From positions 1 to 61,575 of IMG/VR virus record IMGVR_UViG_3300027743_000031: 61,575 nucleotides of DNA; one strand, written 5' to 3'. Within the stretch, counting starts at the first letter, position 1. Every line of letters begins with the position of its first letter. The notes under the pieces are model-generated. The model was given only the letters and a program-made list of their open reading frames with translations. It made no database searches and was not told the DNA's origin. The DNA comes from a virus. Taxonomy: Duplodnaviria > Caudoviricetes. Shown piece after piece: positions 2,595 through 34,049 of this stretch. The position numbers and the translations under genes are program-made.

Positions 2595-3640
2595 GTGACC
2601 GTCAGCGCCAGCCCGTTCGACGGCGGCGCATCCGGGTTCGTCGCGACGATGTCGTAGGTGCCAGCGCCTGCCTCCCACGAGACGCTCAACTGCGTCTCGC
2701 TGATCCAAGTGCGAGTGAGCGTCCAGGTGTCATCGGCGCGCAGCACGACGTCGGGATGGAAGCCGGTGCCCATCACGTCGAACACGAACTGCGGCGTCGC
2801 GACGACGGTGCTGGGAACGAGCGACGTGAGCACGGCCGTGATGATGGCGGGAGGTTCGGGCGGTGGCTGCGTCCACGTCTGGAAGCGATGCTTCATCGGC
2901 GCGAGGTCCGGCGACCAGACGAGCGATGGAGAGTGCAGGTGCTTCGGGTTGATCGCGCTGATGTACGCATCGACCTCGATGATCCCGGTCTGGCCGTTGG
3001 GGAACATGCCCATCGTCAACGTCATCGCAACGCCCTGGCGCGCGATCGCCGTGACGTTGGACGGAAGCCGACACTTGCCGCCCGAGCACGCCTTGGTGAA
3101 CTCGCACGCCAGGACTCCTGCGGCCCACAGGCCAGCGGGGCCGGGATCAATGCCCGGGACGTAGCTGACCGTGAGGGTGTTCGGTGCGCCCGCTGGGGCG
3201 GTCATGTCCTGGCAACTCGGCCAGCACAATCCGTCCTGCCTGACCAGGCGGTTCCCGTTATCGACCCGGAAAGTGTCCAGTGGGATGTCCGTTCCCGACC
3301 AGTTGACGGAGACCAGCTTGGCGATGTTCCCCGGCGTGACGATCTCGCACATCCTGGTGCAGGAGCACGGCGGCGTGCCGCAGGCGCAGTTGAACCACCG
3401 CCCGTCGATGAGGACGGGGTTCATCCAGCCGCCCCCTGGCGCGATCCAGCTACTGACGCAGCACTCGCACGGCGCGCTGAGACACGGCCGCATCAGCACA
3501 GGGCAGTTGCCGACCTGTCCGCCCGACAGCAGACGGATGGTCGACCAGGCGAGCTCCATCGCCTTCTCCTGCACCAGTGGGTCGATGGTGTCCCAGCCGG
3601 TGCAGCAGTCGGTATCTGCTTCCCAAGGTACGCAGGTCAC
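2591..3640 (-). CDS. Head-to-tail adaptor with C-terminal Ig-like (IPT/TIG) extension
   Basis: 349 aa; CRLPSNVTAIARQGV and TGIIEVDAYISAINP resemble actinophage adaptors; beta-rich tail with GTGF and IVATNPD. Confidence 0.7.
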   Translation of the reverse strand: MTCVPWEADTDCCTGWDTIDPLVQEKAMELAWSTIRLLSGGQVGNCPVLMRPCLSAPCECCVSSWIAPGGGWMNPVLIDGRWFNCACGTPPCSCTRMCEIVTPGNIAKLVSVNWSGTDIPLDTFRVDNGNRLVRQDGLCWPSCQDMTAPAGAPNTLTVSYVPGIDPGPAGLWAAGVLACEFTKACSGGKCRLPSNVTAIARQGVAMTLTMGMFPNGQTGIIEVDAYISAINPKHLHSPSLVWSPDLAPMKHRFQTWTQPPPEPPAIITAVLTSLVPSTVVATPQFVFDVMGTGFHPDVVLRADDTWTLTRTWISETQLSVSWEAGAGTYDIVATNPDAPPSNGLALTVT

Positions 3641-9437: not shown

Positions 9438-9584
9438 CTACTTCTTGACGATCACGTAGTGACCGCCCTCCTTGCGAACGATGTTCATCGCTGCTTGCAG
9501 CGTGTCCACCTCTTGCTGCCGTCCGGCCTTGGTCGTGACGACGTACTTGCGAACCTTGTTGCCCCCTTGGCATCCACAGGCCAT
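9438..9584 (-). CDS. Small head-module protein (MACGC..., 48 aa)
   Basis: ATG overlaps the protease-fusion stop; MACGCQGG...GGHY. Confidence 0.7.
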   Translation of the reverse strand: MACGCQGGNKVRKYVVTTKAGRQQEVDTLQAAMNIVRKEGGHYVIVKK

Positions 9585-11953
9585 CAGACGCCCACCCGTT
9601 CGTGGAGGCGCTTGACGCGCTCGGCGTTGATCGACGCGGTGACGGCCGCGGCGCGCGCCGCTCGGGCGCGGGCCTCGGCGCGCCGTTCCACTTCGTCCAC
9701 GACCCGGACGGCGATGCGGCCTTCGTCCAGGGCGTTGGGATCAGTGACAACGATTGCGGCTGCGGTCAGCGCCAGCAGAATCGTCTCATCAGCCGCCGAC
9801 GCTGCCAACTGCGGCCGGGGGATGGGAAAGCCGGGGACGTTGACGATCAGCGCGCCGACCAGTTCCAGGTTCCCACCGATGCGCCGCCAGTCGCCTGACG
9901 GCGCACCAGCGCGCAGTGCGTGGGACTGCTCCTGCGTGATGCCGGGTCGCTCGATGCCGTGGACCCAGATGCCGAACTCGTCCTCACCGACTGCCACGTC
10001 GGCAACGACCGTGCCGGTGTCGTCGTAGTGGCGCACCGTGTCCCGAGGGTCGAGCTCTGCTGAGGCGTGGCCGGTGCCCGCGGTCAGATGACCGACCGAC
10101 ACTGCGCCGCCCGACGTCATCACTTCACCCGTGCGGAAGTAGGCGTAGTCGTGGGTGGACTTCGGCGCGGTGACGCAGTTCTTCTCACCGAAGCCGACAT
10201 GGCAGGTGTCCCACGAGGCGATGTGCCCGACGACTTCGTTGAACTCACCCGCCGCGCGAACGGTGATCGCGGTCGGCTTGTCGAGGCCAGGATCGGTGAA
10301 CAGTTCCAGGGGTGGCGCTTCCATAGTGTCCTCCAGTGAAGCACAGAGCGTGAAGGCCGCCAGGACCTCTCGCAGTTCGGGCGTGTCGTCGGGGATGTCC
10401 ACAGTTTCCTCACCAGTGTCCACCGCGCTGACGAGCTTCCGCACAAGGCCCTTCTTCTTCCGGCCGTGCGGCGCTTGCCCAGGCCAGAAGCCCAGCGCCA
10501 CGTAGTGCATGTTGGCGCAGGTGCCGTCGAGGTAGGCGGGGTTGTGGATGTACTTGCGGAGTTGGTCGCGGCACCGATCGAAGTCGCCGGGCGCGCCCCA
10601 CTTGATCTTGGCGGCACCCTCGCCGCGGGTCCAGTACCGGCGCAGGCGCTCGGTCTCGCGCGGGTTGGTGATCCAGCCCGGTGCGTCGTGGGTGTTGACC
10701 GGGCCAGCCGCCTTCAGGCTGTCGGGCGGGTCTTCCTTCAGCAGCCGGTACAGACCGCGCAGCCGCGAGCGGGCCTTCGCCTTCTGGTCGGCAGGAGCGT
10801 TCACGCCGCCACGAGCCCCGGCGAGGGCAGCCGCGGCGGCGTGAACCCCTGCCCTGCTCACCGCTCCGGAGGGTGTGAGCACGGGGACCTTGTACGTGCC
10901 CTTCGACTCGGGATCGCCTCCTGGCATGTGGATCAGACACGCCTTGCGCCATTGCTCGATCGAGTAGTCGGCGGCGCTGTACTTCGACCACGGCTCTTCG
11001 CTGATCGCCGCCGTCAGTGGCTCGCGACCGATGCGCTCACCGGCCCACCAGATCTCGACACCGCCGATGCGGATCGTCTGCGGCATCTCGTCGGGGTGGT
11101 TGATCCCGTAGCCGATCGTCATGTGCGGGGTGAAGTGCGGGTGGTCGCTCTTCGGCTTGGCCACCGCTTCCAGTTCGGTCCGCAGCCGGTTGAACTCGGG
11201 ATGTTCCAGCAGATACGTCGCCGCTTGCGGCTCGTCGTTGCCCATGAACGCGCGGCCGTTGACCTTGGCGTCGAACGGTTCGACGTCTGCTTCCGACAGC
11301 CAATTCTCGAGCGCGGGGCGCAGCGTGTCGGGCGCTTCGTCGGCGTGGCCGTAGTAGCCGAGCGTGACGTGAAGGTCGTCAGGGTCATCGCCGCCATCGA
11401 CAGCGACAGCAGGTGGGTCAGCCAGTGTCGCCACCACCACCGCACCCCGAGGCGGGTCGGGGTCGGACGCGGCAGTGACGACACCAGCCCCGACTGTAAG
11501 GCCGCAGCGGCAGTTGATCCACACCTCGGGCGGGCCGATCGGTTGGCCGGGGTACATCAGCGGATGACCGCCGACGATGAACGGCTTGCCCGCGGCGACG
11601 GTGACACCGTGCATCGGTTCGTGCAACTCACGCACTCGCTCGTCCTCTTGGGTGAACCACGTGAAGGACGCGTTGAGCGGCGCGCTGGCAACGACGGCTG
11701 CGTTCTCGGCAGCCTTCTCCATCCACGCCGCGACGAGGTCCGGGTCGCTGACTGCTGTGGTGTGGTCGATCGCCGCGCTCAGCGAGAGGCTGTACTGGCG
11801 CAGGTCATCGACCGTCAACTCGTCGTTGCTGTCTTCCGTGACCCGCTCGTCGTAGGCGGCGATGAACAGATCCTCGGCAATCTCCGTCAATCTGATGGCG
11901 CGCTCTTCGGGAGACAGGACCAGTGCGGCCTCGATGTCGTCGCGAGTGCTCAT
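9584..11953 (-). CDS. MuF-like / 2H phosphoesterase / capsid maturation protease fusion
   Basis: 789 aa; INCRC (MuF), HVTL and PHMTI (2H), GHIASWDTCH and PSGDWR...LIVNVPGFP (protease region). Confidence 0.8.
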   Translation of the reverse strand: MSTRDDIEAALVLSPEERAIRLTEIAEDLFIAAYDERVTEDSNDELTVDDLRQYSLSLSAAIDHTTAVSDPDLVAAWMEKAAENAAVVASAPLNASFTWFTQEDERVRELHEPMHGVTVAAGKPFIVGGHPLMYPGQPIGPPEVWINCRCGLTVGAGVVTAASDPDPPRGAVVVATLADPPAVAVDGGDDPDDLHVTLGYYGHADEAPDTLRPALENWLSEADVEPFDAKVNGRAFMGNDEPQAATYLLEHPEFNRLRTELEAVAKPKSDHPHFTPHMTIGYGINHPDEMPQTIRIGGVEIWWAGERIGREPLTAAISEEPWSKYSAADYSIEQWRKACLIHMPGGDPESKGTYKVPVLTPSGAVSRAGVHAAAAALAGARGGVNAPADQKAKARSRLRGLYRLLKEDPPDSLKAAGPVNTHDAPGWITNPRETERLRRYWTRGEGAAKIKWGAPGDFDRCRDQLRKYIHNPAYLDGTCANMHYVALGFWPGQAPHGRKKKGLVRKLVSAVDTGEETVDIPDDTPELREVLAAFTLCASLEDTMEAPPLELFTDPGLDKPTAITVRAAGEFNEVVGHIASWDTCHVGFGEKNCVTAPKSTHDYAYFRTGEVMTSGGAVSVGHLTAGTGHASAELDPRDTVRHYDDTGTVVADVAVGEDEFGIWVHGIERPGITQEQSHALRAGAPSGDWRRIGGNLELVGALIVNVPGFPIPRPQLAASAADETILLALTAAAIVVTDPNALDEGRIAVRVVDEVERRAEARARAARAAAVTASINAERVKRLHERVGV

Positions 11954-27283: not shown

Positions 27284-28777
27284 ATGGCCCGAACCAACAA
27301 GGCGGAGGACCCGGACAGTCCCGCCGCGATCCGAGAGTCGCAGATGCTGCTGCTCGCGGAGATCGGAGGGAAGCTGCTTGGCGAAGAGGACATCACGTTC
27401 TCGGGCACCAAGTTCGTCCTTCCGGCAAAGCTGGACCTCGATCAGTCGATCGAGTTCCTGGAGCAGCGTCGGAACGATGAGCAGACGGTCAACCGCTTCG
27501 TGAAGACGTTTCCCTACCGTCCGCTGGATGGCGCTCGCGCCACGATGCAGGCGATCAAGGAGGCGTTCGGCTTCACGCTGGGCAAGACCATCTACTCGTT
27601 CTGGGGCAACACCCCGCCCACCTTCATCGACTGCCGCTACGGCCCTGGCCGTGACGACACCGAGCAGGTGCCGTGGGGGGCAATGCAGATCCCCGGCTTT
27701 GAGAACACGAGCGTCTACCTCGGGGCGGAACACCACCCCGAGTTGGGCAACTGCTTCAACATCAGAGTCGAGTCGCCCCGCAAGTACAGGTTCCACATCG
27801 AAGGGCTGTTCCGGCTCATCGCCAAGAACCTGGAGGAGCGGAGCATCTACCGGGGCAAGGCGCTCGACGGTGCGGCCGAGCCGAACTTCATCGACACCAC
27901 ATCGGTGGCGACGGAGGACGTCGTCTACACCAGCGAGGTCACGGCGCAGTTGGAGGCCAACGTGTGGTCTCCGATCAAGCACGCCGAGGCGTTGACCAAG
28001 CTCGGCCAGCCCGGGAAGCGGACGGTCCTCTTCGAAGGTCCGTACGGCACCGGCAAGTCGCTGGCCGCGCTGCTCACCGCGCAAGTTGCGGTGGCCAACG
28101 GGTGGACGTTCTTGCTCTGCCGTCCTGGCAAGGACGACTTGAACGTGACGATGCAGACGGCGCGCATGTACCAGCCCGCCGTCGTGTTCTTCGAAGATCT
28201 CGACACCGTTGCTCAGCCGGGCAGCAGTGACGACATCTCGCAGATCCTCGATATGTTCGACGGCATCACCACCAAGGGGCTGCAGATGCTCCTGGTGCTG
28301 ACGACGAACCACGCCGAGCGCATCCACAAGGGGATGGTGCGGCCTGGCCGTCTCGACGCGGTGATCCACGTCGGTGAGATGGACCGGGCCGGTGTCGAGC
28401 GACTGACACGCCGAGTGATCGGTGATGCGCTGGCGTTCGACATCGACTTCGACAAGGTGTTCGTCGCGATGGATGGGTACATGCCCGCCTTCGTGAAGGA
28501 AGCCCTGGACCGTGCGATCCGCTACTCCGTCTCGTTGAACGACGGCGCGGTTGGTCGCATCGACACCGATGCTCTGGTGTTGGCGGCGTCTGGTCTGCGT
28601 GACCAGTTGCGGCTGATGATGGGCGCATCGGACGTCGAGGTCGAGCCGACGCTGGACCGGGTGTTCTCCCGCGCCATCACCAAGGCGGCGACGAACGTGT
28701 TGTACGACACGGCCGTGGCCGATTTGGACGATGGCTACCAGCGCTGGCAGTTGCAGAAGAAGGAGCCCCAGGACTGA
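27284..28777 (+). CDS. AAA+ ATPase (classic clade)
   Basis: Walker A GPYGTGKS, Walker B VVFFEDLD, TTN sensor, RPGRLD arginine finger. Confidence 0.9.
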   Translation: MARTNKAEDPDSPAAIRESQMLLLAEIGGKLLGEEDITFSGTKFVLPAKLDLDQSIEFLEQRRNDEQTVNRFVKTFPYRPLDGARATMQAIKEAFGFTLGKTIYSFWGNTPPTFIDCRYGPGRDDTEQVPWGAMQIPGFENTSVYLGAEHHPELGNCFNIRVESPRKYRFHIEGLFRLIAKNLEERSIYRGKALDGAAEPNFIDTTSVATEDVVYTSEVTAQLEANVWSPIKHAEALTKLGQPGKRTVLFEGPYGTGKSLAALLTAQVAVANGWTFLLCRPGKDDLNVTMQTARMYQPAVVFFEDLDTVAQPGSSDDISQILDMFDGITTKGLQMLLVLTTNHAERIHKGMVRPGRLDAVIHVGEMDRAGVERLTRRVIGDALAFDIDFDKVFVAMDGYMPAFVKEALDRAIRYSVSLNDGAVGRIDTDALVLAASGLRDQLRLMMGASDVEVEPTLDRVFSRAITKAATNVLYDTAVADLDDGYQRWQLQKKEPQD

Positions 28778-30223: not shown

Positions 30224-30417
30224 TGGCTCCACGCTCAGGACCGGAACGGATGCGGCCGCAGCACGCCCCCGCGTACGTGTGGTGCGACTACCACGGCGAG
30301 ATTCATGGGGCGCAGATCGACTTCTACGAGGAGGGCTACAACGACGAGAACGGCTGCGTGCCAGGGAACTGGCGCAAGGTCTACATCAACGGCACGAAGG
30401 GAGAGTTCCTCTTATGA
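30223..30417 (+). CDS. Hypothetical protein
   Basis: TGATG overlap; YVWCDYHGEIH. Confidence 0.6.
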   Translation: MAPRSGPERMRPQHAPAYVWCDYHGEIHGAQIDFYEEGYNDENGCVPGNWRKVYINGTKGEFLL

Positions 30418-30501
30418 ACGCACTGTTCGCCGCCGTGTTGGTGGCATGGGCCGCGGTCGCGTTCGGCCCGACGCTGCGCCAGCGGTATCGGGAGTGGCGC
30501 G

Positions 30502-30777
30502 GTGACTGAGCACTGGACGGAGCAGTACATCCTCGCTCGGCCGCTCGACGTCGACAACTGGCTCGTCGTGTTCCCGCTCACCTTCGGGCGGTGGCGCGTG
30601 GCCGTGGCCGATGGGCCGCTCGGGCTGACAGGGGAGTTCGCTTGAATGACGGACTTCCCGGCAGCGGTCGCTGCCTTCTTGTCGTGGCCCGACATCCCCG
30701 ATGGAACGTGGACCCGGCTCCGCACCAAGGATGGCGTCGTGGTGTATCCGGGGCGTGAGGCGGGTGAGCCGCTGTAG
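30502..30777 (+). CDS. Hypothetical protein with in-frame TGA (30643-30645); candidate selenoprotein or readthrough gene
   Basis: GTG 30502 to TAG 30777 is a single frame interrupted only by TGA; SECIS-like hairpin follows. Confidence 0.45.
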
Positions 30778-30840: not shown

Positions 30841-31557
30841 TCAGCGAGGGCTACGGCGGGCCGGGAGGCGGCGGCGCGGCGCGGTCATGCGGGTGTAGTA
30901 CATCCGGGTGTCGTCGAAGCCGCTGAACAAGCCGGGGTAGCGACGGGCCACCTCGGCAAACCACTTCTGCCGCTCGGCGTACTGCTGCACGAAGTGCGAA
31001 TTGGCACCGCCCATGCGATAGGTGCCCTGGATGTAGTTGATCCGCGAGCAGGTGCCGTAGCGCATGAACGCCTGCGCTGCGATGTCCACGTCCTCGCACA
31101 GGCCGAGCGTCGGGTCGAACCTGAGCTCGGTCCCACATGCCAGCGCGTAGAAGCCGCCGCCGATCTGCCCCCATGCGGAGATCGTGCGCGACAGGTACAG
31201 CGCGTTGCTCGCAGAGGCGATCGTCACCAACCCACAGCGGCGCTCGGCACCGACGCGGATGAACTCGTCCGCGGCCTGCCCGATGGTGATCGCTTGACGC
31301 GTGCCGTTCGGCAGAAGCTCGACCATGCCGGTCAGGTCGTCGTCGGAGAACACCGACCACTCCTGGGCGGTGTCGAGAATCGCGTTGGCCTTGTCCGCCT
31401 TGCCGGGTGGTCCGGTGATGACGCGCTCGGCCCCGGCGCGCAGGTAGTCCATGCGCTGTGACTCGGGGACCAGCCACACCAAGTCGGCGTCACCCGCGAG
31501 CGCGCTCATGCTCGGCACGTTGTCAGCGCGCGAGAGCGACACGACGTAGACGTTCAT
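30841..31557 (-). CDS. TET-associated-type glycosyltransferase 2
   Basis: VVSLSR, FSDDD and CEDVD GT-A pattern; overlaps the GT1 stop. Confidence 0.7.
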   Translation of the reverse strand: MNVYVVSLSRADNVPSMSALAGDADLVWLVPESQRMDYLRAGAERVITGPPGKADKANAILDTAQEWSVFSDDDLTGMVELLPNGTRQAITIGQAADEFIRVGAERRCGLVTIASASNALYLSRTISAWGQIGGGFYALACGTELRFDPTLGLCEDVDIAAQAFMRYGTCSRINYIQGTYRMGGANSHFVQQYAERQKWFAEVARRYPGLFSGFDDTRMYYTRMTAPRRRLPARRSPR

Positions 31558-32351
31558 CGGACGCGGCGGTCCTTCAAGCGGACCTCTGGGTACGGCGACT
31601 TCTTGCTGAGGTTCATCGAGCACAGGCTCGGGAACTTGTCAGCCAGCCACTGCGCTGAGCGCAGAATGCGCTCGGGCGTGCGCGACAACTGCAAGCCTCC
31701 CGGCTCCTTGTAGTACGAGGTCTGGATGCTGATGAACTCCAGCCGCGTGACCACGCCGTCTGCGAGGTAGTGGCGGATGCTCCGCTCGTAGTCCTCCTTG
31801 TCATCGAGCACGACCATCTCGTGAGCGCGGCCGGTCACGCGCATCCCGAACAGGCAGGCGATGATGTAGCGCAGGTCCACGGTGGCGCGCGGGCGCATGA
31901 AGTACGGGTTGAGCACCGGATACACGCCCCACAGCGTCGAGCCGGTCGCGTGCATGTCCCGGAAACCCATCGCGAACAACTCCGCAACATCCTCCACGTC
32001 CTTGACGTGCTTGCTGTCCACCCACTCCACGATGCGGCTGATGTCGTCGTCGATGAAGGCGAGCTCCGTGTTCTTGGGCTGCTGGGCGATGACGTAGTTG
32101 CGGCTCGCACCGACGTTCACCGGCTGTTCACCGAGCAGGTCGAGGCTCTTGTCGGACGGGTCGTGCGGGGCGATGGCGATGCGCGCGCCGAAGGGCCGGA
32201 CGAAGTGCGAGTACTGCTCCGCTTCCATCTCGTTCGGCACCCACACGGTCACGCGCTCCATGTCCACGCCGCCACGGTGGAGCACGGGCAGCGTCTTGCG
32301 GGCGATCGTCTCGCCCCGGCCCGCCGAGCAGATGGCGATGACGTAGCTCAC
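31554..32351 (-). CDS. TET-associated-type glycosyltransferase 1
   Basis: IAICSAGR, RNYV, FIDDDI, KEDYERS and PGGLQ. Confidence 0.8.
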   Translation of the reverse strand: MSYVIAICSAGRGETIARKTLPVLHRGGVDMERVTVWVPNEMEAEQYSHFVRPFGARIAIAPHDPSDKSLDLLGEQPVNVGASRNYVIAQQPKNTELAFIDDDISRIVEWVDSKHVKDVEDVAELFAMGFRDMHATGSTLWGVYPVLNPYFMRPRATVDLRYIIACLFGMRVTGRAHEMVVLDDKEDYERSIRHYLADGVVTRLEFISIQTSYYKEPGGLQLSRTPERILRSAQWLADKFPSLCSMNLSKKSPYPEVRLKDRRVR

Positions 32352-33358
32352 TTCTTGCGCCGCTTCTTGATGCCCGCCTTGTAGCCGGGAGCCGCGCGCA
32401 AGTCCTCCAGTTCGGTCGCTCTGATCTGTGCGCGACGCAGTTCGTCGGCCGGGTCCGCGGCGCAGTGACTCATCATCGTCTTGGCGTAGGTGACGCAGGT
32501 GTACCGCCAGCCGTTGCTCTTCGTCATCCGCATCGGCGTCACGCCATGCACGACGGACTGCCCGTCGAAGATGGTGATGCTTCCGTGCGCCACCGGCAGG
32601 TACACGTCGTAGTCGGCCAGGTGCAGCAGCCCGCCAGCGACACCGTCGCGGCAGCCGAGCATTGCCGACCACGACCCAATGATGTTGCCGTTGTCCTTGT
32701 GATACGGGAGCGCCGCAGTTTGGTTGATGATCCCGCTGGTCCACGGTGTTCCGGCGATCAGCCACGGCCCGGCGATCTTCTCCCGAACGGCGCGGCCGGT
32801 GCGGTCGTGAACGTCCTTGGCCTGGATGCGGAAGACGTGCTCGGCCACCCGGCAGAACTCGGCCAGCACGTCCATCGCCCTCGGGTACTCGACGTTGAAC
32901 TGGCTGCGGCAGCAGCCCATCCGCCTCCGCAGGGGGGAGGGTGGTTGGTACCCAAAGGTGCGGTGAGTGACAGCCACCCCGCTCAGCCGGGTCGTGCTGT
33001 TGGCGTTGCCGAACACGTCGTCATCGAACTTCACGTTGCGAAGCGACGCGGCGAGGTCGGTGGCGATTGACTCTGCACAGACGGCGTAGACGACAGCGAC
33101 TTCGCCCGTCAGTTCGTCCACGATCGCGACATCGCGGTCGAGGATTACGGAGTCGTGGTTGGGAGCAGGTGCATTGGCACGTGCTTGCTTCTGACCGCAC
33201 TCTGGACACACGTCGGTCGGCCGATACGGGATCATCGCCCCACAGGACTGGATGCGCCGGTTCCACTGATCGACCTTGCCCTCTGCGAAGGCGCACGGGA
33301 CGAGCGGCGCGCGGCGCGGCAGCACCATGCGTTCGATCGTGGTGTCAGAGCGTTGCAT
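32348..33358 (-). CDS. 2OG-Fe(II) dioxygenase, TET/JBP-like
   Basis: IINQTAALPYHKD (HxD), HGVTPM (distal His), RYTCVTY (2OG-binding Arg); N-terminal Zn ribbon. Confidence 0.85.
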   Translation of the reverse strand: MQRSDTTIERMVLPRRAPLVPCAFAEGKVDQWNRRIQSCGAMIPYRPTDVCPECGQKQARANAPAPNHDSVILDRDVAIVDELTGEVAVVYAVCAESIATDLAASLRNVKFDDDVFGNANSTTRLSGVAVTHRTFGYQPPSPLRRRMGCCRSQFNVEYPRAMDVLAEFCRVAEHVFRIQAKDVHDRTGRAVREKIAGPWLIAGTPWTSGIINQTAALPYHKDNGNIIGSWSAMLGCRDGVAGGLLHLADYDVYLPVAHGSITIFDGQSVVHGVTPMRMTKSNGWRYTCVTYAKTMMSHCAADPADELRRAQIRATELEDLRAAPGYKAGIKKRRKK

Positions 33359-34049
33359 CGTCGGGCACCGCGGGGAACCCGAGCACGTCAGCGTCCTCGC
33401 TCTCTTCCAGGCGCGACGCCTTGAACGCACCGTCCACCAAGAACTTGACGACATCGGCGTTGCTCTCCAAGAACATCGCCTGGCGCAGCGCGGCCAGCTT
33501 GTTGGCGACTTCCTCGTAGGTCTCCGCCTCGTACGGCAGGATGATCGAGCGGATGTCCAACTGGTTGTACTGGTCGAGCCGGTCGTCGGGTGTCACGCCC
33601 TGGCGCACGCCACCAACGATGTCGCTGGCTTCGTGGCCTTGCAGCAGAAGCTCGTAGGCGGTGCGGTCGTAGCCGGTGCCCTCCAAGCCCTCGCTCTCGA
33701 TCAACTGCTCCAGCAGCTTGAACAGCGCCTCGTCGTCGTAGAAGGCGAGATCGCTGGCGCGGTTGTCGGCCAGCGCGATGCGGACCGCCTCGACATCGGA
33801 CGTGTCCACGTCCAGTTCCAGCACCGGCACTTCGGTCGCGCCGAGTTCACCCAGCGCTTGATGGCGGTGGTTCCCGGCGATGATGAACTTCGTGCTCTGC
33901 TGGACGATGATCGACCCGTAGAACCCGTTGACTCGGATGCTCTCCTTCAACGCGGTCAGGTCGCCCGAGCGTGGGTTGTCGGGCCACGGCTTCACGCTGT
34001 CCCACGGCACCAACAGCGGGACGCTGGACTCATGGAAGCGAACGGTCAC
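33345..34049 (-). CDS. ParB/Srx N-terminal-domain protein
   Basis: NPR...SIRVNGF...IIAGNHRHQA...ADNR. Confidence 0.85.
   Translation of the reverse strand: MTVRFHESSVPLLVPWDSVKPWPDNPRSGDLTALKESIRVNGFYGSIIVQQSTKFIIAGNHRHQALGELGATEVPVLELDVDTSDVEAVRIALADNRASDLAFYDDEALFKLLEQLIESEGLEGTGYDRTAYELLLQGHEASDIVGGVRQGVTPDDRLDQYNQLDIRSIILPYEAETYEEVANKLAALRQAMFLESNADVVKFLVDGAFKASRLEESEDADVLGFPAVPDDATL

Follow-up and report, generated by a model that had tools for sequence, protein, structure and literature searches.

A candidate phage selenoprotein gene with a conserved in-frame UGA and a short GGUC hairpin resembling a bacterial SECIS element

In Escherichia coli K-12 the in-frame UGA of fdhF is followed by the sequence GGUUGCA-GGUC-UGCACC, which presents a GGUC tetraloop at nucleotides (nt) 22–25 after the UGA, and in fdnG the corresponding loop is AGUCU, with G-U-C at nt 23–25. 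The E. coli SelB factor contacts G23, U24 and a bulged U, and models of the bacterial selenocysteine (Sec) insertion sequence (SECIS) allow a range of distances between the UGA and the loop, within numerical limits, and expect a G early in the loop. Among viruses, the only selenoproteins named in the available text of PMC8310308 are those of poxviruses: the glutathione peroxidases of molluscum contagiosum virus and fowlpox virus, which depend wholly on the Sec machinery of the host and, in the case of fowlpox virus, have the SECIS in the coding region. Here we describe a small gene at positions 30502–30777 (plus strand) of the virus record IMGVR_UViG_3300027743_000031 from IMG/VR; "the window" below is this entire record (61,575 bp, rated complete, GC content 66%). 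An earlier note on this DNA had singled out an in-frame UGA followed by a SECIS-like hairpin with a GGUC loop, on the premise, borne out by the K-12 sequence given above, that fdhF presents GGUC in the same way. We propose that the UGA at 30643–30645 is decoded as Sec within one gene for a 91-residue protein, a reading to which, judging from comparative evidence, we give a probability of roughly 0.7.

The frame opens with GTG at 30502, runs through 47 sense codons ending in LGLTGEFA, reaches TGA at 30643–30645 and continues directly with ATG (30646–30648) and MTDFPAAVAAFLSW up to the TAG at 30775–30777, in exact agreement with the translation noted earlier. It thus comprises 91 codons including the internal UGA, the proposed Sec codon, which corresponds to residue 48 and to a Cys column in relatives. 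The ATG that follows may represent a conserved Met of the family, an alternative start, or both. Both halves of the gene have a coding signature on the plus strand, with GC content at third codon positions (GC3) of 0.88 in the N-terminal and 0.82 in the C-terminal half and with GC1 above GC2; a long antisense open reading frame (ORF) lying over the gene has no such signature.

A first indication of what the UGA stands for comes from the protein family. An exhaustive phmmer search, for which the frame was read through with X at the TGA, returned 13 proteins, and profile searches added more; the resulting alignment (A6) has 37 rows, including 15 full-length single proteins that span both halves and 16 short ones. 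At the TGA column, 14 of the full-length members carry Cys and one carries His. None carries Trp, the residue that would have pointed to a simple nonsense change, and the guess that the UGA occupies a Cys position is in this respect well founded. The family motif at this column is E-H-W-C-M/L/Y, the residue after the Cys column being Met in nine, Leu in four and Tyr in two of the 15 full-length forms; the W-C-Y motif, which the earlier note had expected here, is one of these variants and occurs as EHWCY in P0010. That the two halves make up a single small protein, also suspected from the start, agrees with their continuity in the 15 relatives and with a predicted fold of one domain. All 16 short members, which have 40–85 residues and fall into 12 separate clusters at 90%, stop precisely one residue short of the TGA column. 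In a large and divergent part of the family, a stop thus takes the place of the Cys found in the others. The peptide Ala-Ala-Val-Ala-Ala (AAVAA), which the hairpin encodes, is present in all five of the TGA forms known as DNA and in none of the 15 Cys or His forms. [quoted passage not shown]

This family is previously unnamed. Neither Pfam nor PHROGs had a significant match to either half, to the joined protein or to the Cys forms, and a word-index protein search and a first viral scan likewise found nothing when the single joined sequence was used as query. Profile scans of 185,579 species genomes (patterns A2 and A5) revealed no relative and no prophage copy, and the viral scan with A5 was empty as well. 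The isolated-phage collection, searched at both the DNA and the protein level, yielded no family member, and the match of P0004 to Gordonia phages is due only to an unrelated C-terminal tail, which resembles hypothetical proteins of the phages RedWattleHog and Stormageddon. Three Cys-type proteins (P0005, P0026 and P0027) have additional N- or C-terminal extensions of the type CxxC...CxxC that look like zinc ribbons, with weak Pfam zinc-ribbon matches for P0027. In a poorly resolved tree of the N-terminal half (42 columns) the best topology requires four changes between TGA and Cys and the well-supported branches force only one; P0034, L005, P0039 and P0041 are placed on its Cys side, and Cys and Sec forms may have been interchanged more than once.

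DNA is available for five members: the window, L003 and L005 (each from a 1.1-kb metagenome contig), L002 (identical with L004, from a 15-kb viral record) and L006 (from a 58-kb viral record, with 54% GC at the locus). All five have TGA as the stop at the same column and a frame that stays open into a homologous C-terminal half. In L002, L003 and L005 the terminal stop of the gene is itself TGA, which makes TGA an ordinary terminator there. For the closest pair, the window and L003, the synonymous divergence (dS) is 1.2–1.8, and the ratio of nonsynonymous to synonymous divergence (dN/dS) is 0.15 in the N-terminal and 0.16 in the C-terminal half, so that both halves are maintained as protein.

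The second line of evidence is the hairpin. In the window, GGCAGC (30660–30665) pairs with GCUGCC (30670–30675) on the plus strand and closes the GGUC loop at 30666–30669, whose first nt is the 21st after the UGA, just as noted earlier; the hairpin forms in every fold of the window sequence. It encodes AAVAA, the beginning of a predicted helix (residues 52–61), and in all five members this peptide follows the TGA after four variable residues. In each member GGUC is closed by a stem of 5–6 bp and occupies nt 24–27 counted from the U of the UGA, and each agrees with the consensus of the bacterial SECIS, namely a stem-loop just past the UGA whose apical loop has a conserved G. The earlier note had regarded a hairpin that is not conserved as fatal to its proposal; in fact the distance is the same in all five members and the stem has changed in a compensatory manner. 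When RNAalifold is applied to the five sequences, the hairpin helix is the sole prediction, 28 of 30 stem cells are paired and two pairs show compensatory changes. Pair 21–30 reads A-U, G-C, U-A, G-C and G-C in the five members, and the outer pair reads G-C, G-C, C-G, A.C and U.C. The covariation score is 0.300 versus 0.079 in shuffles, and nine of 500 shuffles reach it.

Codon choice in the loop is restricted as well. There are 20 invariant columns with degenerate codons, of which 18 use two to four different codons; GCG and GTC, the codons of the loop, are the only ones that do not vary among the five members, and they are kept even in L006 with its locus of 54% GC. Rough estimates from the codon usage of the window, in which the lineages are assumed to be independent, give a chance of about 9e-4 that both loop codons are identical five times, and of about 5e-3 that the wobble pair is complementary in five of five. 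As read from these alignments, the hairpin is under constraint at the RNA level. A lower stem had also been suggested, in which 30646–30652 pairs with 30679–30685. It is pairable in the window and is otherwise to be dropped, being absent from the minimum free energy structure of the 61-nt region and not conserved: 21 of 35 cells pair in the five members, versus 47% in shuffles and 37–51% in slid registers. We therefore do not count it as a feature.

It should be noted that on the window alone the combination of TGA-ATG and a hairpin does not exceed what chance can produce. The z-score of the local fold is –0.36, with 67 of 200 shuffles folding equally well. TGA terminates 90 of the 114 roughly called genes of the window, 19 of 92 same-strand neighbouring gene pairs share the same frame, and a hairpin of at least 6 bp starting 10–24 nt downstream follows 11 of the 90 TGAs at gene stops. 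GGUC tetraloops on stems of at least 5 bp occur four times on both strands of the window, and only the one at 30660–30675 has a TGA at that offset. The direct abutment of stop and start (gap 0) is unique among the 92 same-strand junctions, for which overlaps of 4 nt (29 cases) and 1 nt (nine cases) are the commonest types. It is the comparative data that lift the locus from a possible chance pattern to what we consider, from the aligned relatives, a strong candidate.

The main rival to Sec decoding is a split gene with re-initiation. According to this explanation an ancestral Cys codon became TGA, and peptides of 47 and 43 residues, the second made by re-initiation at the AUG, assemble into the same fold, the hairpin being kept for another reason or only for the sake of its AAVAA peptide. 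The layout of the locus lends itself to such a course of events. ATG follows the TGA directly in four of five members, and a Shine–Dalgarno (SD)-like GGGGAG lies 9 nt upstream of it in three of five (window, L003 and L006), so that a separate start is permitted; in the window, translation of the second half may re-initiate from AGGGGAG at 30630–30636 (plus strand, within Gly-Glu codons), for which the predicted anti-SD duplex is –7.7 kcal/mol and similar in L003 and L006. The halves are listed by gene callers as proteins in their own right (P0002, P0033, P0035), tight coupling is usual in this phage, where an overlap of 1 or 4 nt is seen at 38 of 92 junctions, and four of the six stem pairs already follow from the GC content of Ala codons. 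Nevertheless, L005 has TAT instead of ATG and reads W-TGA-TAT-GAT-TCA-CCT, its Y-D-S-P aligning with M-D-S-P in the Cys forms, and an in-frame ATG, GTG or TTG comes only 11 codons past the TGA. The C-terminal half of L005 can therefore not come from a start after the stop, and the residues that such a start would skip are conserved with the Cys forms; this also speaks against the concern, voiced in the earlier note, that the adjacent ATG would let the halves exist as independent genes. A start codon with a ribosome-binding site does not head the second half in all members, given the TAT of L005 and the weak SD-like sequence of L002 (–2.5 kcal/mol). Moreover, Met is ancestral at that position (nine of 15 full-length forms), so that the ATG does not need to be explained as a start codon. 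A split gene leaves unexplained the invariant synonymous sites of GGUC, the compensatory wobble pair and the fixed 20-nt spacing, it would place a stable GC hairpin 15 nt inside the coding start, where it would be expected to hinder initiation, and the break would fall inside a β-strand of one compact predicted domain. Taken together, we regard it as unlikely.

Programmed read-through independent of selenium, in which the hairpin stimulates decoding of the UGA by a near-cognate tRNA (for example for Trp, Cys or Arg) without SelB, would also account for the conservation of the UGA, of the open frame downstream and of the nearby hairpin. It fits a hairpin whose loop position and missing bulged U differ from fdhF. 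To our knowledge, no bacterial read-through signal of such form is known, and the GGUC loop is the same as that of the fdhF SECIS. Cys stands opposite the TGA in 14 of 15 cases, and such strict pairing, a signature of Sec-codon recognition in the available part of PMC1976440, likewise speaks for Sec, and read-through of this kind seems to us quite improbable. Hardly credible is a non-functional TGA, be it a nonsense mutation, a sequencing error, part of a decaying pseudogene or a sense codon of a genome with a reassigned code. Such an origin agrees with the single sequence, where TGA-ATG plus hairpin is within chance at 66% GC, but five independent assemblies share the same TGA and 16 short proteins of the databases imply it, the C-terminal half is under purifying selection (dN/dS 0.16), and TGA ends most of the roughly called window genes (90 of 114) and the same gene in three relatives. 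A contig with a word depth of 14 is identical over the gene stretch; the sequencing run from which it comes is possibly the source of the window DNA, so that it is not independent support, and a contig of a second run, which begins just 8 nt ahead of the TGA, is uninformative about that codon. At the level of aligned sequences, the comparative data contradict both a nonsense error and a reassigned code.

Several further observations weigh against Sec decoding, in addition to the adjacent ATG with its GGGGAG, the separately called halves and the contribution of Ala codons to the stem. The DNA comparison comprises only five sequences, which are mutually related, and the outer stem pair fails in two of them; 83% of the cells remain paired when the register is slid by –3. 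The Cys forms are known from protein sequences, and the family has no CxxC or UxxC motif. Compared with fdhF, the loop is 2 nt farther from the UGA (nt 24–27 versus nt 22–25) and the stem has no bulged U; the SelB site of fdhF, with G-U at nt 23–24 of the loop plus the bulged U, is thus replaced by G-U at nt 25–26 without a bulge. Rfam gives no match in 30600–30760 at E-values up to 10, and none in the whole window at the gathering score. According to the available text of PMC12013277, the SECIS elements of bacteria vary widely and are not well captured by models, and SECIS-like structures become commoner as GC content rises. Finally, none of the three virus records with a TGA-type gene contains a tRNA(Sec).

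If the UGA is read as Sec, the mechanism could be as follows. With the ribosome at the UGA, the hairpin at 30660–30675 would lie just outside the mRNA channel and present its GGUC loop, which would bind the SelB-GTP-Sec-tRNA(Sec) complex of the host in the manner of the fdhF SECIS in E. coli; Sec would then be inserted and translation would continue to the TAG at 30775. The phage would supply the cis signal only, and tRNA(Sec), SelA, SelB and SelD would come from the host, presumably a Sec-using actinobacterium; it is SelB binding, the actual insertion of selenium and the identity of the host that we infer here. Searches of the window for tRNA genes and for SelA found none, and virus records devoid of tRNA(Sec) and SelA are what a supply by the host would lead one to expect. 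As a possible fall-back, translation may terminate and then re-initiate at the adjacent AUG, giving two fragments, and both modes might coexist. In its broadest form, the proposal is that this is the first phage selenoprotein family, found in actinophage-like viruses, which use a minimal GGUC SECIS of 5–6 bp and borrow SelB and tRNA(Sec) from the host, have a productive host range tied to Sec users, and keep UGA-AUG with an SD-like sequence as a fall-back that yields a protein in two pieces under limitation of selenium or SelB. We hold this extended version to be somewhat better than an even bet.

AlphaFold2, given an alignment of 20 rows headed by the joined window protein, predicts one compact domain with a mean predicted local distance difference test (pLDDT) score of 90.9 and a predicted template modelling (pTM) score of 0.80. 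Its elements are strands at residues 11–14, 20–25, 31–36 and 42–49, the helix at 52–61 and a strand at 70–74, with residue 48, the position of the TGA, inside strand 42–49 and AAVAA at the beginning of the helix. Foldseek gave no match in the PDB at E ≤0.001. The best BFVD match is an uncharacterised phage protein (E 0.089, template modelling (TM) score 0.58) and the best VIA-align Z is 4.5, both of which are not convincing; a protein atlas search with the natural Cys form P0004 produced weak leads only (0.81). The model, with one conserved Cys or Sec in a strand near conserved aromatic and acidic residues, suggests a site with a single nucleophilic or redox-active thiol or selenol.

The genome in which the gene resides is, by its sequence matches, that of an actinophage-like virus. 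Its genes include those for portal, major head, terminase and tape-measure proteins, the portal is about 38% identical to portals of phages that infect Microbacterium and Arthrobacter, and there are matches to 877 actinophage records. Upstream of the candidate gene, an SD-like GGGAG with the GTG start occupies 30491–30504 on the plus strand (anti-SD duplex –7.0 kcal/mol), and this GTG overlaps the stop of a small ORF, a hydrophobic one of 31 codons at 30414–30509 (plus strand) in the ORF listing of the window. By eye, a small hydrophobic ORF of about 26–31 codons lies directly 5' of the gene in the window, in L003 (~600–693) and in L005 (~420–500), and in the window and L003 it ends with ...FGP-LRQ...; this suggests, as far as the few available contigs go, that the small ORF and the gene form a conserved two-gene unit. 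The L002 record (G002) is 15,085 bp long, has direct terminal repeats and is rated complete. Being small for a tailed phage, it may represent a satellite-like element; an ORF at 3266–3541, after the gene, resembles an HNH endonuclease in its Cys/His pattern (by eye).

Directly 3' of the candidate gene, a convergent cassette occupies 30841–34049 on the minus strand of the window. It consists of a 238-residue protein without assignment (30841–31557), a TET-associated glycosyltransferase (31554–32351; PF20691, 42.2 bits), a TET/JBP-type 2-oxoglutarate- and iron-dependent dioxygenase (32348–33454; Pfam Tet_JBP, E 1.9e-8, 34.1 bits, just below the cut-off of 34.9) and a ParB_N-like protein (33345–34049; 25.6 bits, just below the cut-off), all on the minus strand. 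We take the cassette to resemble a cytosine hypermodification module. The rightward block of small genes to which the candidate belongs also contains, at 27284–28777 on the plus strand, a gene for a 497-residue AAA-family ATPase (PF00004, E 1.1e-11; phrog_10440). Beside the portal gene, a 789-residue protein is encoded on the minus strand at 9584–11953; its PHROGs matches are to portal, head maturation protease and head morphogenesis proteins, with a further weak match annotated as RNA ligase, and it may be a composite head-assembly protein, to judge from these matches.

A selenoprotein encoded by a phage would be very unusual. We found no report of one in the searched literature, including the available text of PMC13449736, PMC5029168, PMC1976440, PMC12013277 and PMC13326102. 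PMC5389517, in its available part, deals with phage tRNAs of unusual shape and reports no phage selenoprotein, and the available text of the BSepDB and deep-Sep papers does not mention phages or viruses. A literature search that combined SECIS, GGUC and SelB gave no paper. If the proposal is true, phages exploit a rare translation system of their hosts by means of a 16-nt RNA signal alone, and genes of this type could serve as markers for host prediction, because the host must use Sec. It would also mean that phage annotation in UGA-rich genomes of high GC content splits real genes. Furthermore, since the natural SECIS would be very small, at the peptide cost of Ala-Ala-Val-Ala-Ala, the rules by which actinobacterial SelB recognises its target would be directly testable with it.

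How the locus relates to the known systems can be summarised as follows. Like fdhF (UGA140), it combines an in-frame UGA with a short hairpin in the coding region that has an upper stem of about 6 bp and a loop some 20 nt on, the GGUC being identical. In contrast to the products of fdhF and fdnG, that of the phage gene has 91 residues and is not a molybdopterin enzyme, and its hairpin is without a conserved lower stem; unlike these E. coli genes, it resides in a virus in which neither tRNA(Sec) nor SelA was found. The poxvirus glutathione peroxidases are captured cellular genes with a SECIS of the eukaryotic type, whereas here a phage would carry a signal of the bacterial type and, with the patterns used, no cellular homologue was found among 185,579 species genomes. 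On the side of possible hosts, the available text of PMC13449736 reports Sec machinery in about 40% of 244 mycobacterial genomes, with one predicted selenoprotein, formate dehydrogenase (FDH), per genome; as UGA is the commonest stop in mycobacteria, annotation splits these FDH genes, according to the same text. The Sec trait is also listed for Microlunatus, Nakamurella and some Arthrobacter (PMC5029168, Table 2, in the available part). In this host range, the trans-acting machinery is likely to be provided by actinobacterial FDH and selABCD systems. The evidence as a whole is of the same type as that for the metagenome families OS_HP1 and OS_HP3, namely a conserved in-frame TGA, homologues with Cys and a bacterial-type SECIS prediction; in the available text of PMC1976440 the metagenome families are attributed to symbiotic bacteria, whereas the present family is found in viral genomes, two of them rated complete with 58–62 kb and one a record of 15 kb.

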